Assembly (NCBI GenBank): GCA_963765765.1
Contig: CAVXYC010000018.1
Location: 64,001 to 128,000 of the forward strand
Length of the DNA: 64,000 nucleotides
Source: an uncultured Chloroflexia bacterium
Lineage (GTDB): Bacteria; Chloroflexota; UBA6077; JACCZL01
Reading direction: 5' to 3'
Both the position numbers and the translations under genes were made by a program. Below, piece by piece: positions 6,916 through 13,463 of this stretch; positions within the stretch are counted from its first letter, which is position 1, and every line of letters begins with the position of its first letter. The notes under the pieces are model-generated. The model had not been told where the DNA came from and ran no database searches. It saw only the letters and a program-made list of their open reading frames with translations.

Positions 6916-7476
6916 CTACCGCACCACCGCGCAGGATGCCCGAACCGTCTCCGACCTGGGCAGCTTATTGCCCTTGAGATATTCCGACAGGCTAAAGGTG
7001 CCGGTCATGATCTCTATGCTGACAACCGATCGCAGGGACCGCGGATTCCTCTCGGCTATCCGGGCGCTGACGTTTTGACACAACTGCGCCGACTGTCCCT
7101 GCCTGACCATTTCCCGGACGGTCTCTCGACGGACGCGTGGCAAGCTCCCGCCTGGAGCGATATTGTTGTAATGGATGGCGTACCGCTGGCCCCGCGCGTC
7201 CCGTCCCACGACAAAGTGCTCCGTGTGCCGATCATCGATCTTAGCGGTGAACATCGGGAAATACGAGAGCGGGAAGCTGTCCCGAGGCCGAGCTTGCCAG
7301 TTCTGCACCACGGCCGACAGCATGGCACCGATCAACGCGATGCTGAAAGCGGCCGCTGGCAATTTGCCCATTTCGGCACGCCGCACTGGCCGCGCGGCTA
7401 CATCAGCGGTGACAACGCCTTGCGATGGCTGGACTACCGCGATATCGCTCATAGCGAATTCCGAGCTTGGGGCCAC
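6916..7476 (-). CDS. Small membrane-anchored protein, probable HTTM partner (SdpA-like or split carboxylase luminal domain)
   Basis: One N-terminal TM helix, then DSFPLSYFPMF. Two Cys (QLCQ, ASCAV). Stop lies 8 bp before the HTTM gene start. Confidence 0.7.
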   Translation of the reverse strand: MAPSSEFAMSDIAVVQPSQGVVTADVAARPVRRAEMGKLPAAAFSIALIGAMLSAVVQNWQARPRDSFPLSYFPMFTAKIDDRHTEHFVVGRDARGQRYAIHYNNIAPGGSLPRVRRETVREMVRQGQSAQLCQNVSARIAERNPRSLRSVVSIEIMTGTFSLSEYLKGNKLPRSETVRASCAVVR

Positions 7477-7681: not shown

Positions 7682-8230
7682 TTAACGTCGCCGCGCAACC
7701 TGACACGTCTCGCGGACGAGCTCGGTTTGAGGATCCTTACTGGCAGTGAAAAACTCATGAAGGTCAAACGTACCGGTGAGAATCTGCACGCTCTGAATTC
7801 TCGAGAGAGCGCCGGTTTGGCGCTGGGCAACCCTCGCGCTTACCAGATACCAGAGCTCTGCAGCTCGACCGGCGCGCACGAATGAATTGATCTGCCGACG
7901 TACCTGGTTCATGACACCGGGCCAGGCCAGCGTGTACGGAATGAGGCTGCGATTGCCCCGTGCATCAACGCCCATAAAGTAGCTGAGCTGCTGCGCATCC
8001 GATCACCCATACGAGAACATCGGATAGTGCGAAAGCGGGAAGTTATCCGCCGGTTCCGGTCGCCAATTCTGAACGACTGGCGACATCACGACGAGAACCG
8101 CCAACAGGCTGAACAACCCGGCGCGCGCCTTCTCTGGATTGACTCGGCTAGCGCCCTCAGCCTCGGCGGCCAGGCCCTCGGTAGCAACCGTAAACTGGCC
8201 GATCACTGAACCACTCATTTTCCGCACCAT
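7682..8230 (-). pseudogene. Paralogue of 6916..7476 interrupted by an in-frame TGA at 8003-8005
   Basis: ORFs 8003..8230 and 7682..7975 share one frame: DNFPLSHYPMFSYG*SDAQQLSYFMGVDARG aligns without gaps to DSFPLSYFPMFTAKIDDRHTEHFVVGRDARG. Confidence 0.75.
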
Positions 8231-8234
8231 AACA

Positions 8235-8266
8235 GAAGCGACGTGTCAATCCCGACACGTCGCTTC
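8235..8266 (-). terminator. Stem-loop between the poly-Asp gene and downstream genes
   Basis: Perfect 13-bp inverted repeat GAAGCGACGTGTC-N6-GACACGTCGCTTC, followed by TGTTAT on the minus strand. Confidence 0.55.
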
Positions 8267-8355
8267 CTTGTATCTGGGGACTCATCAACCTAGGCTGACG
8301 GTCCCAACACAACAGCGCTAGCCTGCTCTCAACGAGAACTGCCGACTAGAGATGA

Positions 8356-9048
8356 TTAGTCGTCGTCGTCATCGTCGTCATCGTCGTCATCATCGTCATC
8401 GTCGTCATCATCGTCATCATCGTCATCATCGTCATCATCGTCATCGTCATCGTCGTCATCGTCGTCATCATCGTCGTCATCATCGTCATCATCGTCATCG
8501 TCGTCATCATCGTCATCATCGTCATCATCATCGTCGTCATCATCGTCATCGTCATCATCGTCATCATCGTCATCATCGTCATCATCGTCGTCATCATCGT
8601 CATCGTCATCGTCGTCATCATCGTCGTCATCATCGTCGTCATCATCGTCGTCATCATCACCCGCAGGAGCCGGGACGACGCTGCCGGTCTTGCTCACCAG
8701 GCTCGCTATGAACACTTTCCTGCCTACGTCGTATTGGCCCGTGACTGTGACGACATCGTATAGCGCGGGAGCGAACGGGGGCGCGTTCTGGATAGTGACC
8801 TGCTCAAGCTCGGCCGGATTGGTCAGCGCCGGACGTTCAAGGTTGAAGGTACCCGGCCCCCCTAGACCCAGTGAGACGATTGTCCCCCCGGTGGTCTCCA
8901 CCGGGCCCAGCTGCGCCGCCGGTGCGGCATGGACGTGCTTGATTGCCGGCGCCATGCCAAACGACACGGCGAGAACAACACCAAATATTGCCAGCGCGCG
9001 GCTTCCCGCGAGGGGCAACAGACGGAAAGCGGGGATGAACTTCCGCAT
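8356..9048 (-). CDS. Secreted protein with small beta-rich (OB-fold/DUF5666-like) domain and C-terminal poly-Asp(100) tail
   Basis: GGAGGT RBS before ATG 9048. Signal-peptide-like N-terminus ending VHA-A. Clear paralogue at 10185..10697. 100 Asp codons then TAA. Confidence 0.85.
   Translation of the reverse strand: MRKFIPAFRLLPLAGSRALAIFGVVLAVSFGMAPAIKHVHAAPAAQLGPVETTGGTIVSLGLGGPGTFNLERPALTNPAELEQVTIQNAPPFAPALYDVVTVTGQYDVGRKVFIASLVSKTGSVVPAPAGDDDDDDDDDDDDDDDDDDDDDDDDDDDDDDDDDDDDDDDDDDDDDDDDDDDDDDDDDDDDDDDDDDDDDDDDDDDDDDDDDDDDDDDDDDDDDDDDDDDD
8359..8658 (-). repeat. (GAY)100 trinucleotide tract encoding poly-aspartate
   Basis: 300 nt. Manual count gives 53 GAT and 47 GAC, interleaved, longest single-codon run 4, no non-Asp codon. 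Confidence 0.95.
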
Positions 9049-9378
9049 GCGATAAACCTCCACGTCCCAAAAGCTTGGGCGTACATAATGTGCTGGGGAC
9101 GGGACAGCTAGGTCGTCCGACTTCCCCGCTTCTACCATATTAGCTGAACGTCCATGGCTTTACTGCATCCGCTAGTATCAATTTCGTTGCTAAAGGAGCC
9201 ATTTCACCTCGAGCTCGGTATCAACATCATGGGTGAATTCCACCGCTCTCATCGTCATGCGAGAAGACTCCGACCCGCGCACATAGCCCCTTCCAGTCGC
9301 TTCGGTGGCGGTAGCCAGAGAGCCCTTCTGCTTCGATTACGCAGGGATCGCTTACGCGTTCTGGTACCATCGGCGCGT

Positions 9379-9778
9379 ATGAGTCCGCCTAGCCTGATCC
9401 TGCTCTTCGACGGCACCTGAGGGTTCTGCACTCGCACCGTGCGCTGGGTTCGGGCGCACGATGCCGCCGGCCGTGTGCTGGCCCTCCCGAATCAGACCCC
9501 CGGTATCCTCGAGCGCTACAGGATCACCCGCGAGGATGCAGACCGTGAGGTTTGGGCCGTGGACATCACCGGCCGGCACGTTCGGCGGCGCCGCGGCAAT
9601 CAACAGGGTGCTCGTGGATCTCGCCGGCCCATGGGCAATGCTCGGCGCCGCGTATCGGCTGCCGCCCGTCCGCTGGGCCGAGAACCTCGGGTATGCGTGG
9701 GTTGCCCGGAATCGGCACCGGTTTAGCCGCTGGGGCGTGACGCCGGAGTGCCAGGAGCCTGGCGTCTCCTGCGGTTGA
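9379..9778 (+). CDS. DCC-family (DUF393) thiol-disulfide oxidoreductase, probable selenoprotein (UxxC); one frameshift near 9575
   Basis: MSPPSLILLFDGT-TGA-GFCTRTVRWV matches the DCC DGxCxxC motif. After the frameshift: GAAAINRVL...GYAWVARNRHRF, the typical DCC C-terminal Y..VA.NR motif. Confidence 0.82.
9434..9464 (+). promoter_or_regulatory. Candidate bacterial SECIS element
   Basis: GCAC-CGTGCGC-TGGGTTCGG-GCGCACG-ATGC hairpin immediately 3' of the TGA at 9418-9420. The GGTT-containing loop is about 26 nt after the TGA. Confidence 0.65.
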
Positions 9779-10118
9779 ATCTCCCGGGCGTTGGCTCTCG
9801 GCTCGTGCCGCATCCCCATCCTTCTGTGCATGCGCTTGCTTGTGTCCGCCAGCACCCATGCGATGAGCGCCGCGCCTATAGCCCGCTAGCCGACCTGGAG
9901 ATGATCCACGCCCCGGCCAGCACCCACATTTGCCCGGGACATGCTCACCGGTACCCCGCTCGTTGTCTTGATGTTATTTACAGTCGGCTCGCGGGCTAGC
10001 TCCCTGGCTGACTCAAGAGTCGCTCGTGCCAACGCATGGGATCCCACTTCCTGGCTAGTGGACGAGTGCCGGTGAAAGCACCGGATCCGCAAACAACGAG
10101 GATAGGGCTGGGTCTCTC

Positions 10119-10158
10119 AAACAACAACAGGGGTCGGCGTGTGCACACGCCGACCCCT
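10119..10158 (-). terminator. Intrinsic terminator of 10185..10697
   Basis: AGGGGTCGGCGTG-TGCA-CACGCCGACCCCT hairpin followed by GTTGTTGTTT on the minus strand. Confidence 0.75.
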
Positions 10159-10184
10159 TGAAGTATCCCGCGAACGTTTGCTCG

Positions 10185-10697
10185 TTAGTCGTTATCGTTG
10201 CCGTCGTCGTTATCGTTTCCGCCATCGTCGTTGTCATCGCCGCCGTCGTTGTCGTTGTTGTCCCCGCCTCCGCTACTCCGTACCGGGGCGGGGGCGGCGT
10301 TGCCCGACGAGGTCATGGACGTCGCCCGGAAGATCTTGGTGTCCGTATCATAATTGCCCGTGATGGAGAGAATTTCTGAGGGAATAACCAACGACGCCTG
10401 CGCCGTCTCGACGACCAGCTCCTCGAGCTGCGCCGGGTTGGTGATCGCCGGCCGCTCGGCATTGAAGCGAACCACACCTCCCGCCGCAATGATTGTCCCA
10501 GGAACCACCGTTGCGGTGAACGTCTCCACCGGGCCGATAATGGCTGACGGGGCCGCGTCGGCGCGCGTAGCCACCGATGCGGCTACGCCACCAATTGCCA
10601 TGGCAAAAATGCCTGCCACGGCGATTGCGGCACGCAATCCACTCATCATCTTATCCACTCCAGCGATACGCATCACTACCTCATAAGCTCCGCGCAT
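10185..10697 (-). CDS. Secreted paralogue of the poly-Asp protein with Asp/Asn/Gly-rich tail (true start may be 10673 or 10649)
   Basis: Shares AAP.A..GPVET, FN.ERPA.TNPA.LE, TG.YD...K.F.A and PAP with 8356..9048. Tail GGGDNNDNDGGDDNDDGGNDNDDGNDND. Confidence 0.85.
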   Translation of the reverse strand: MRGAYEVVMRIAGVDKMMSGLRAAIAVAGIFAMAIGGVAASVATRADAAPSAIIGPVETFTATVVPGTIIAAGGVVRFNAERPAITNPAQLEELVVETAQASLVIPSEILSITGNYDTDTKIFRATSMTSSGNAAPAPVRSSGGGDNNDNDGGDDNDDGGNDNDDGNDND

Positions 10698-10832
10698 GTG
10701 GACCCTCTCGGTCCAGACATATACACCCTTGAGCCATCTTACCGGGATGACGGTGCCCGGCCAGACTAACTCGAGCTGGGATTGACTCTCCTGCAGGAAA
10801 CGCTCAGGATCCGGGCGCCACGGCAGTGGAGC

Positions 10833-12278
10833 CTAGCGGGCGCCGCCTGCGGCCATGGCAACGCCTGACGTTCGGCGAGAGGGGGCGCTTACGCCCAGCA
10901 GCCCCAGCCCTAGGAGTATGCCCATCGCGGTGGCCGCCTGGGAGAAGCCCATGAGATACCCCGGCACCCCTGGCATCGCGGCGATGGCGGCACCGAGGAA
11001 CGCACTGGATAAGGAGACGCCTATCGCGTGTCCGAACTGGCGCGTGAGCTCCGTGAGTCCGCCAACGAACCCGCGCTGATCAACCGTGCGCAAGGCCGAT
11101 CACGTAGGTGTTGTTGATCGACGTAAATGCGCCCAGCCCGGCGCCCAGCATGGCGCTAATCGGGAACAGCATTGGATAGGGCAGCCACGCGCCGAGCTGT
11201 CCCAGGAGAATCAGGCCAGTCGCCATCATTCCCATTGTGATGAGCGCCAGGACGAAGGTTGGTCTGCGGGAGTAGATCCAACCACCGAGCACTGCCGAAA
11301 CGAGCATGAACATCTGCTGTACCAGCACGAGATGCCCCGTATCAGTGGGCGTCATGCCTCGTCCCCGCTCGAGAAGAAATGGCAGTAGAACGCCAGTAGC
11401 CAACATGCTCATGTGAGCAAGACCGTTGGCGATAACTCCACCCGTCAGTTTCCAATCACCGAGCAATGAGAAGCGCACTAGCGGAACTTTCATGTGGAGC
11501 TGGCGATACACAAACGCGGTGAACAACGCCAGACTCGCGAGGTGCATAGAGATGTGGTAGGGAGCGCCAGCTTCGAACGTCTCCGGACCGTCATGCAAAT
11601 GATTCATGCCCGTAAGAAGCAATCCGACCGCGCCAAAAAGCGTAAGAGCACTCAACCAGTCCACTCGCACCTTGTCAGCGCGACGCGGCACCAGATCGTA
11701 GCGAGAGCAAATGTACGCGGCGGCGATACCAACGGGGACTGGAATGAGAAAGGAGAGGCGCCAGCCAGCGCCCTCTGCGAGCAGCGTGCTCAACCACACG
11801 CCCGTCAGAGACGCAAGCCCGGAAGTCATGGTCAGTAGGCCCACCGCCGTGGCTCGGCTACTCCCCGGGAACGTCTGCGCAATAATGGCCAGCGTACTGC
11901 CCAGAATCATTGCCGAGCCCACGCCCTGAATAGCGCGGGCCGTGAGAAGCATGACGAAATCCGGCAACAATGCCGCGATGACACTCCCTACCGCGAAGAC
12001 GAGTGCGCCACTTCCGAAAACACGACCGTGCCCCACGCCATCGCCCAGCCGGCCGGTCAGCACCGAACCCACGAGAAACAGGAAATAGGCGTTCATTACC
12101 CATGCGCCGCCCTCAACGGGCACGTTCAGATCATGTGTGATGGTGGGCAAAATGGCAGAAACCGGTGCCATGGCCCAACCGGCAATGAAGTAGCCGGCGC
12201 ATACAGTGGCCAGGACGGCTCTGGGAGAGGAGGGAGGGAGACGGATCTGGGAGCGAGAGAGAGGTTCACAAAAGTCAT
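10833..12278 (-). CDS. MFS transporter (DHA2-like), two frameshifts
   Basis: GRLGDGVG motif A, ARAIQGVGSA and many TM helices. Pieces 11080..12171 and 10833..11093 plus an N-terminal piece from ATG 12278. Confidence 0.8.
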
Positions 12279-12391
12279 TGTGGCACAGGTATGGGCGACC
12301 GGTCTATGACCAGATCCCAGCGATCAGTGCCGAGTCATGAGCGATGAGCACTCCGAGTGCTACCATCGGCAGCGCGAGGAGAGCAGCTCTG

Positions 12392-13463
12392 ATGACACGT
12401 TCGCATCGTATTGTGGTGATTCCGGGCGACAGCATTGGCCCGGAAATCGTCGAGTCCGGATTACGCATTGTGGAAGCCGCCCGCGAGCACGTGGGCGGTT
12501 TCGACCTGCAGATCGATCAGCACTCCGCTGGCGCGGGCCACTATCGCCAGTACGGTCGGAATATCGATCCGGAGACGCTCGAGGCCTGCCGAACCGCGGA
12601 TGCGGTGATCAAGGGCCCGGTAGGGCATCCTGACGTTCGCAACCCGGACGGCACCGAGGCAGGTCTGTTGGGCGGCGTACTACGACTGGGCCTGGATCTC
12701 TTTGCCAACATCCGCCGGTTAAGCTCTGGCCGGGCGTGAAGGCGCCGGTCACCTGGCAGCCGGGCGAGATCGACTACGTAATTGTCCGTGAGAACACCGA
12801 GGGTCTGTACGCCTCACGAGGCCTGGGCGTCTCCAATAACTGGGCCGCATCAGACATTCTGTTCATGACTCGGCCTGGCGTGGAGCGCGTCTCCCGAGCG
12901 GCGTTCGAGCTGGCGCGCAAGCGCCAGGGGGCACCCTCGGACGGTGCGCATCGCGTCACATGTGTGGAGAAGAGTAACGTGCTCAAGAGCATGGCGTTCT
13001 TCAAGGCCATATTTCTCGAGATCGCTGAGGAGTATCCGGATATCGAGCATGAGACCCTCTACTCCGACGCGGCTGCGCAAGCACTGGTACTCAACCCCAG
13101 CCACTTTGACGTGCTGGTGATGGAGAACTTTCTCGGCGATTTACTGAGCGACCTGGGCGGCGGCACCGTTGGGCGGGATCGGCATGTGCCCGTCCGGTAA
13201 TATCGGCGCCGACGCCGCGGTATTCGAGCCAATCCACGGGAGCGCGCCCTCGCTGGGCGGCGTTAAACCGAGCGAACCCTGTGGCTCAGGTACTGTCGTT
13301 TTCGATGCTGCTCACGCATATCGGAGAGGGCGATGCCGCAGCTGCGGTTGAACACGGCGTGGGAGCCGCGCTGGCTGACGGCTCACTCACCATCGCGCCC
13401 GACGGCTGTCCCGTGGGCGGAACGCGCGCGGCCGCAGACGCCATCATCGAGCGCATCGCCTGA
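12392..13463 (+). CDS. Isocitrate/isopropylmalate/tartrate dehydrogenase family protein, about 3 frameshifts
   Basis: [57 protein letters not shown] and ANP motifs spread over consecutive ORFs. Confidence 0.85.

Follow-up and report, generated by a model that had tools for sequence, protein, structure and literature searches.

An open reading frame for a predicted exported OB-fold protein ending in 100 aspartates in an uncultured soil Chloroflexota bacterium

The window analysed here is a stretch of 64,000 nucleotides (nt), positions 64001-128000 of contig CAVXYC010000018.1 (C18), which stems from an uncultured soil bacterium of the Chloroflexota whose genome bin (G000) amounts to 6.49 Mb on 33 contigs, with a completeness of 91.8% and a contamination of 6.85%. 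On its minus strand the window carries a gene, referred to below as the poly-Asp gene, which encodes a protein of 230 residues that consists of a predicted signal peptide, a predicted OB-fold domain and a tail made up of aspartate only (Table 1). The open reading frame (ORF) is a genuine coding gene that is conserved and at the same time lineage-restricted, and its product is the extreme member of a small, equally lineage-restricted family of paralogous proteins with acidic tails.

Table 1. Features of the poly-Asp gene and its surroundings (positions in the window; minus-strand features are listed by their plus-strand coordinates)
Feature	Position	Strand	Remarks
Poly-Asp protein, coding sequence	8356..9048	-	230 aa; ATG 9048-9046, TAA stop 8358-8356 included
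Predicted Sec signal peptide, residues 1-41	8926..9048	-	cleavage probably after VHA
Predicted OB-fold domain (~85 aa) and short linker, residues 42-130	8659..8925	-	AlphaFold2 on alignment A2
Asp tract, 100 codons (53 GAT, 47 GAC)	8359-8658 (+ coordinates)	-	residues 131-230
Shine-Dalgarno-like GGAGG	9057..9061	-	8 nt 5' of ATG 9048; read directly from the sequence
Paralogue with equivalent signal peptide and OB domain, D/N/G-only tail	10185..10697	-	170 aa if started at ATG 10697, which is uncertain
Terminator-like hairpin, 13 pairs, T-rich tail	10129..10158	-	directly 3' of the paralogue stop
DCC/DUF393-like thiol-disulfide oxidoreductase frame, divergent	9380..9800	+	in-frame TGA and later frameshift
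Palindromic hairpin, 13-bp stem	8235..8266		between poly-Asp gene and next gene; listed on +; minus-strand tail not T-rich
Second copy of the small membrane protein, one in-frame TGA (8003-8005)	7682..8230	-	identity of 40% (residues 28-186)
Small single-pass membrane protein, 186 aa, alpha/beta ectodomain, two conserved Cys	6916..7476	-	transmembrane residues 39-57
HTTM-like polytopic module fused to PGA_cap domain (CapA/PgsA/MslH-type), 739 aa	4688..6907	-	Pfam

Although an alternative in-frame ATG at 9138 would extend the protein to 260 residues, the start was placed at ATG 9048 because of the GGAGG 8 nt before it and because an equivalent start is present in the alignment of orthologues. 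The tract is composed exclusively of GAT and GAC codons, is free of interruptions, directly abuts the TAA stop and accounts for 100 of the 230 residues (43.5%). A recount from the ORF thus agrees in all respects with the first-pass annotation of this DNA, which had reported 100 terminal Asp (53 GAT, 47 GAC) running straight into TAA and a tail that makes up 43 percent of the protein. The irregular subunits of 9 and 12 nt that were described there match the two periods that Tandem Repeats Finder (TRF) assigned to the tract, namely 9 nt (33.7 copies, 86% matches) and 12 nt (25.2 copies, 83% matches), and the string of third-position T and C letters forms a mosaic of 2-, 3- and 4-codon units. Across the genome the pattern (GAY)10 was matched 113 times and its reversed control not once, which places the tract far beyond chance. 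The share of GAT within the tract (53%) is not distinguishable from that in the genome (44%, p=0.07). Aragorn found only one tRNA-Asp gene (GTC) in the bin, which is 92% complete, and this one tRNA species would have to decode all 100 GAT and GAC codons. The figure of exactly 100 has no evident significance.

The signal region has a basic N-terminus, one hydrophobic segment (residues 18-36) and a V-H-A/A-P junction (the slash marks the cleavage site), and this A-x-A/AP junction is kept in all family members (alignments A1 and A3). Judged by the hydrophobic segment and the conserved junction, the protein is probably exported by way of a Sec-type signal and cleaved after A-x-A, in keeping with its first-pass description as secreted. 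The predicted mature protein comprises 189 residues, 102 of which are Asp, and carries a net charge near -100. Its folded part has only 4 Lys+Arg as opposed to 6 Asp+Glu (net charge about -2), and nucleic-acid binding is therefore unlikely.

In the case of the folded part, AlphaFold2 (run on an alignment of five sequences) predicted a five-stranded barrel at residues ~45-125, with strands at 47-60, 67-73, 81-87, 98-107 and 112-123 and a predicted local distance difference test (pLDDT) that averages 78-92 per block of 10 residues over residues 51-130. In comparisons with VIA-align the best match was 3e0e_A (Z 9.4, root-mean-square deviation (rmsd) 2.6 A over 73 residues); 26 chains were recovered at Z>=8, nearly all of them OB folds, and those of RPA, SSB, PriB and the N-terminal domain of aminoacyl-tRNA synthetases (AspRS-N) ranked at the top. 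On this model the N-terminal domain belongs to the OB-fold class, i.e. the closed five-stranded beta-barrels of about 70-90 residues. The match to YgiW (1nnx_A), a representative of the periplasmic YgiW/YdeI (BOF) family, is no better than that to generic OB folds (Z 7.9, rmsd 3.0 A over 69 residues). Foldseek returned no match to the domain at E<=0.001, and the best of its look-alikes in the protein atlas scored 0.85, below the threshold of 0.9 for a lead.

Two memberships were tried and rejected. SSB, RPA and PriB likewise combine an OB fold (Z 8-9.4, rmsd 2.6-3.5 A over 71-75 residues) with a disordered acidic tail, but the poly-Asp protein differs from them by its signal peptide, its 4 Lys+Arg and the lack of an SSB match at E<=10, and Z values of 8-9 denote a generic OB resemblance; membership of the single-stranded DNA-binding SSB/RPA proteins was ruled out by the absence of any Pfam family at E<=10 together with the N-terminal hydrophobic signal segment. 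A precursor of a ribosomally synthesised peptide that is modified after translation (RiPP), of the MslA-like kind, was ruled out by the length of 230 residues, the Sec-type signal and the folded domain; Pfam and NCBIfam scans of the neighbours revealed no lasso or other RiPP maturation families.

A word-indexed search of 5.8 billion proteins recovered one homologue of the poly-Asp protein, and an exhaustive profile search of 1,835,955,588 representatives recovered 9 matches at E<=0.001, 7 of which at E<=1e-10. The full-length metagenomic members (P0001-P0005) all have a signal peptide, an OB domain and a C-terminal tail that is rich in D, N, G and S (in part also E). D/N/G/S-rich tails occur on every full-length member of the family. 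Among 61 related genomes clear homologues were found only in one of the same genus (G001), which has two of them. The orthologue in G001 has 67 uninterrupted Asp (40 GAC, 27 GAT) that are directly followed by TAG, and a second orthologue, with 66% identity and 39 uninterrupted Asp, is encoded on a metagenome contig of 1,050 nt (L053). Together with these orthologues, a ratio of nonsynonymous to synonymous substitution (dN/dS) of 0.25-0.42 in the N-terminal region marks the gene as real and conserved. A metagenome scan with the family alignment yielded 2 loci only, both about 1 kb in size. A Gly-Cys-Gly-Cys end-tag (MYXO-CTERM-like) is absent from the C-terminus, which ends in DDDD before TAA in the window and in Asp before TAG in G001.

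The bin itself contains at least four family members. The paralogue within the window shares 36% identity with the poly-Asp protein (E 2e-22), and its tail is encoded by GAY, AAY and GGN codons only, without Glu, His, Tyr, Ala or Val. This composition suggests that short side chains of the Asp/Asn type are needed there, beyond negative charge as such. Two distant paralogues surfaced in a genome scan (C14:375530-376249 and C26:32510-33214; hhalign probability 88.6%, E 2.6e-6); they are 55% identical to each other, each have an insert in the domain and have D-rich tails with runs of 10-18 Asp. A membrane protein with a tail of 13 Asp (C17:71594-72184) was rejected as a family member (hhalign probability 0.2%).

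The three orthologous tracts (100, 67 and 39 codons) come from separate assemblies and contain no non-Asp interruption in 206 Asp codons. At the same time the synonymous divergence (dS) of the flanking domain ranges from 0.63 (window versus L053) to about 1.8 (versus G001), a range over which many non-Asp codons would be expected in a static neutral tract. Purity in three assemblies, the dS values and the near-genomic share of GAT together favour retention of Asp over a young neutral microsatellite. As a caveat, a tract can also be made uniform and rid of interruptions by slippage in the absence of selection, and active slippage is evident from the differing lengths. The claim that variation confined to the synonymous position points to selection for pure Asp therefore holds in part: purity in three assemblies at this divergence supports it, whereas the synonymous argument itself is weaker than stated, because slippage alone can rebuild units of 2, 3 and 4 codons. 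The comparison suggests a tail that is free in length and constrained in composition, with its purity probably under selection.

An alternative that we consider unlikely is that the tract itself is functionless and represents a codon microsatellite that expanded in a tolerant, disordered C-terminus, the function of the protein residing in the OB-fold domain. The different lengths among close relatives would fit this, as would the slippage-like units of 9 and 12 nt and a T/C pattern that can be derived from 2-, 3- and 4-codon units. The dN/dS is also higher in the poly-Asp orthologues' N-terminal region (0.25-0.42) than between the D/N/G paralogue and its G001 orthologue (0.054). The purity of the 206 codons argues against it, as does the acidic or amide-rich tail in every family member, the distant ones included, and the fact that GAT and GAC occur at near-genomic frequency rather than as one expanded unit.

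Long Asp runs were surveyed in an even set of 401 Chloroflexota genomes from 217 genera, in which the reversed-pattern control gave no match. Runs of at least 25 Asp codons are present in 10 of the 401 genomes and 5 of the 217 genera, with the tract described here as the longest (100) and a run of 67 as the next. The carriers are the poly-Asp gene and its G001 orthologue, the trigger factor in five genomes, a subtilase (internal run of 31), a PepSY protein (C-terminal run of 28) and a Thr/Pro-rich protein (28). The assertion that homopolymers of this kind are very rare in bacteria thus has to be toned down for the phylum, whereas the tract remains the longest seen. In one genus the trigger factor carries 27-54 Asp internally, between Trigger_N and FKBP/Trigger_C, in all five matching genomes, and translation through long poly-Asp must therefore be feasible in the phylum. 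C-terminal runs of at least 12 Asp that reach the stop occur in 6 of the 401 genomes, on unrelated proteins most of which have an N-terminal hydrophobic segment (for instance the PepSY protein with its D28, and several proteins rich in transmembrane (TM) segments or in Thr/Pro). Long poly-Asp is, in other words, a recurrent and modular feature in Chloroflexota and evidently translatable. In relation to the microsatellite, the runs of at least 25 GAY codons inside the trigger factor, the subtilase and the Thr/Pro-rich protein suggest a mutational propensity and in so far speak for it.

The trigger factor loci in question (L057-L061, in G260, G230, G190, G115 and G150) encode a chaperone of the cytoplasm, in which the poly-Asp insert is long and varies in length. 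Other loci with Asp runs (L055 in G407, L056 in G393, L064 in G002, L065 in G267, L066 in G365 and L068 in G142) comprise, besides the subtilase and the small PepSY protein, membrane or exported proteins rich in Thr and Pro, which have either 28 internal Asp or 12-22 terminal Asp, and a very acidic open frame of 90 residues (start not set) with 17 terminal Asp. A literature search for bacterial poly-Asp tails showed no bacterial example in the part of the results that was covered, and a search on 'aspolin' gave nothing relevant. For animals, the accessible part of PMC5125637 lists single-residue Asp runs of 144 in zebrafish and 120 in sponge.

The reading that we tentatively favour takes the protein to be exported and to bind cations or minerals as a disordered polyanion that is tethered to an OB-fold domain. 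A Sec-type signal peptide would direct the product out of the cell and be removed behind the conserved A-x-A, which would leave a mature protein of ~189 residues in which the five-stranded OB-fold domain is followed by an unstructured tail of ~100 Asp. The tail would act as an extracellular polyanion of high capacity and low affinity, binding divalent cations (Ca2+, Mg2+) or positively charged surfaces of minerals or of the cell envelope, and a specific site for attachment or for a ligand would be contributed by the OB-fold domain. The tail would drift in length by in-frame codon slippage, with selection removing non-Asp interruptions.

By its composition, and with no homology, the predicted protein falls into the class of Asp-rich secreted polyanions (calsequestrin tail/shell-matrix type). 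The likeness to shell-matrix proteins that the first-pass annotation had drawn is accordingly correct as to the shared Asp-rich composition, and is an analogy by composition only. The roles suggested there, i.e. chelation of Ca or other metals, control of mineral formation and service as a modification substrate, may still be regarded as the leading functional candidates. Aspein, Asprich and aspolin are Asp-rich biomineralisation or polyanion proteins of animals; they resemble the poly-Asp protein in being secreted, as it is predicted to be, and in that Asp makes up more than half of the mature protein (102/189 here), but they are eukaryotic and tied to mineralised tissue or muscle, and no homology was found. 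The PepSY protein from another Chloroflexota genome shares the long terminal Asp run (D28), whereas its N-terminal domain belongs to a different family. The eukaryotic tails of calsequestrin-type proteins, 'aspartactin' and EMRE are similar in that a targeted protein ends in consecutive Asp, and the known ones are linked to Ca2+ in the accessible parts of the sources: a protein of chicken muscle has 33 Asp at its end (PMC2115193), and the poly-aspartate tail of EMRE is part of the mitochondrial Ca2+ uniporter (PMC4892889). These tails bear no sequence or fold relation to the bacterial protein, which instead has an OB fold and a tail three times longer.

Several observations weigh against the exported polyanion. 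Neither family searches (no Pfam match, BOF and SSB included, at E<=10 and no NCBIfam match at permissive thresholds) nor the charge of the folded part hint at what the OB domain might bind, and no calcium- or mineral-related genes were seen among the neighbours examined. A tail that runs to the stop is not universal, given that 16 non-Asp residues follow the tract on L053, a contig whose end lies 8 nt past the stop and which may be misassembled. The gene was found in none of the public RNA runs searched. According to the accessible part of PMC12340396, consecutive acidic residues stochastically abort translation through intrinsic ribosome destabilisation, and only a minor part of the product may therefore be full-length. 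Finally, disrupted genes cluster within about 6 kb around the gene (window 7682-13200), and the only public sequencing run with its flanks (X1, share 0.20) gave contigs that cover 8220-8348 and 8788-9057, none of which spans the tract.

The last two points bear on the length of the tract in particular. No public run contained half or more of the sequence words of the locus; many runs with a share of 0.14 probably reflect GAY repeats of other organisms, and X2 and X16 matched nothing in the stretch. That the length of 100 is an assembly product, i.e. that a real tract was collapsed or expanded, appears rather unlikely to us and would affect the length and not the existence of the gene. No read or contig spans the tract, and public contigs break there; the frame breaks and in-frame stops nearby could be consensus errors, and to this can be added the 6.85% contamination of the bin and the fact that the G001 contig with the D/N/G paralogue terminates within its repeat tail. 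Against this stand 300 nt in frame without an indel, the independent assemblies with 67 and 39 uninterrupted Asp, and a frameshift in a neighbouring MFS transporter gene that lies outside any homopolymer and is not a typical long-read error. The broken neighbours may be due to local gene decay or to assembly consensus errors, and the cluster of lesions calls for caution with regard to the exact number of 100.

As for the lesions, the DCC-like frame reads ...LLFDGT-TGA-GFCTRTVRWV... and is frameshifted near 9575-9585; its TGA stands at what we take to be the first Cys of the DGxCxxC redox motif. Readthrough as selenocysteine was rejected: the genome does have a tRNA-SeC (tca), but the RNA downstream folds no better than its shuffles (z -0.16) and the frame is shifted further on. 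The MFS transporter gene is frameshifted near 11081-11089, and the Iso_dh gene (isocitrate/isopropylmalate dehydrogenase) is split at 12736-12739. Recoding was likewise rejected for the small membrane protein's second copy, whose TGA corresponds to Ile or Arg in relatives and is a plain nonsense codon.

The intact small membrane protein has 32 metagenomic homologues, in which C133 is invariant and C182 near-invariant and which carry no annotation; it is a conserved partner of the HTTM-like gene. Its AlphaFold2 model (mean pLDDT 78.9) had a best VIA Z of 4.8 and no Foldseek match at E<=0.001. In the adjoining fusion protein the PGA_cap domain (PF09587, residues 428-664) is recognised with an E-value of 1e-57 (196 bits against a cut-off of 27), whereas the HTTM module (PF05090) stays below its cut-off of 27.7 bits, with 24.7 bits in the window and 20.1 bits in G001. 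Ahead of the last TM segment (residues 335-353) lies a loop (residues 258-334) that is rich in Lys and Arg (10 versus 2), which by the positive-inside rule places the PGA_cap domain outside the cell. The best solved relative of this domain, and the only one by sequence, is MslH (8GQ9, E 6.8e-13). Equivalents of MslH Glu44, Asn87, His88, Asp91 and His295 are present in the alignment, the aligned stretches of which leave out Asp11, His259 and His261. According to the accessible part of PMC10406935, His88/Asp91 and His295/Asp11 form catalytic dyads and Glu44, Asn87, His259 and His261 are Ca2+ ligands. The fusion scores 69.5 bits against the MslH equivalog NF038314, far below its cut-off of 700, and is thus not an MslH equivalog. 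No lasso-peptide, PgsB or PgsC genes were found in the neighbourhood scan.

The idea that the tail is a modification substrate hereby gains a candidate enzyme, namely the putative enzyme encoded by this adjacent fusion gene. In its explicit form, it holds that the HTTM-like/PGA_cap membrane enzyme has the poly-Asp tail as its substrate and would, for instance, convert L-Asp to D-Asp (and thereby confer protease resistance), or trim or release the tail, as a ribosomal counterpart of the poly-gamma-glutamate pathway; we regard this as rather unlikely. The block of poly-Asp gene, small membrane protein gene and fusion gene is kept in G001 despite an inversion relative to the nearby gene for a Crp-family regulator, and the latter two genes, 8 nt apart in the window, overlap by 4 nt in G001. 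The domain is inferred to lie outside the membrane, i.e. in the compartment that an exported tail would reach, and its only solved relative by sequence retains the five key residues in common with it. As far as the sources were accessible, MslH depends on Ca2+ and epimerises the residue at the C-terminus of a ribosomal peptide (PMC10406935, PMC8179263), and its discoverers proposed that CapA epimerises an L-Glu homopolymer (PMC8179263).

Nevertheless, this synteny is seen in two species of one genus only, and kin share synteny anyway. Between the poly-Asp gene and the genes downstream of it there are hairpins: in addition to the palindrome in the window, hairpin-forming inverted repeats occur in the G001 intergenic region, where the scan called no terminator. 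The 32 homologues of the small membrane protein/HTTM-like pair, as compared with about 9 for the poly-Asp family, imply that the pair mostly occurs without a poly-Asp gene. The three other D-tailed paralogues of the genome lack an adjoining HTTM or PGA_cap gene, as do the loci on C14, C26 and C17, and 28 other Chloroflexota PGA_cap loci (1.5-kb flanks) have no ORF with an acidic run. Elsewhere the HTTM-like module is fused to a DCC oxidoreductase or an M48 peptidase. With respect to MslH and CapA (PgsA), the likeness pertains to the neighbouring enzyme only (PGA_cap at E 1e-57, five catalytic or metal residues); that enzyme differs by its fusion to an HTTM-like domain and its score far below the MslH cut-off, its activity is putative, and Asp11, His259 and His261 fall outside the aligned stretches.

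Taken one step further, the locus could provide a ribosomal route to extracellular polyaspartate, in which the OB-fold protein delivers poly-L-Asp, and the fusion enzyme and its small membrane partner epimerise or release it. We deem this improbable; if true, it would result in a protease-resistant polyanionic coat or chelator of mixed D/L-Asp, analogous to the non-ribosomal poly-gamma-glutamate capsule.

With regard to the HTTM-like module, fusions of HTTM with DCC are typical of bacterial HTTM proteins. Among the 16 homologues of the fusion protein that were listed (P0043-P0058), PF05090 was found on 9 and DCC (PF04134) on 8. Fusion to PGA_cap was seen in 3 of these 16, with the window protein counted, and fusion to peptidase M48 (PF01435) in 1. 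SdpA/SdpB, which act in the maturation of the Bacillus cannibalism toxin, form an HTTM-containing analogue. They were rejected as a parallel, since NCBIfam gave no SdpA/SdpB match even at E<=1 and the literature gave nothing relevant.

A different role of the gene might lie in the behaviour of ribosomes on acidic runs. Destabilisation of the ribosome on such a run is used by a Mg2+-sensing leader peptide. The poly-Asp ORF might in the same manner be a translational sensor, with Mg2+-sensitive ribosome destabilisation controlling the downstream membrane genes. This is highly improbable in our opinion, in spite of the stochastic abortion of translation on acidic runs (accessible part of PMC12340396) and of the position of the ORF 5' of the membrane genes, from which hairpins separate it. 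Unlike a leader peptide, the product of the ORF has a folded and conserved domain that is predicted to be exported and is under purifying selection, and no such membrane genes follow the other members of the family.

If made as encoded, the exported polyanion that we favour would contain by far the longest Asp homopolymer that our searches brought up in a prokaryote, and it would offer a test case for the passage of ribosomes through 100 acidic residues, as far shorter clusters are reported to abort translation. It would likewise be a test case for the role of exported poly-Asp tails, which recur on unrelated exported proteins. A genetically encoded polyaspartate of tunable length would be of interest for the control of biomineralisation, metal sequestration and scale inhibition, and the adjoining CapA/MslH-type domain gives a concrete starting point for testing the proposal, as yet unproven, that enzymes of this family epimerise acidic homopolymers.

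Elsewhere in the bin, two open frames on different contigs (C13:13523-14929 and C17:1746-2963) are identical in their last 260 residues printed, among them a His/Asp-rich stretch, DHDHDDDDQDHDHTHDHDHDH. Their presence on two contigs is due to a duplication or else to redundancy among the contigs of the bin.

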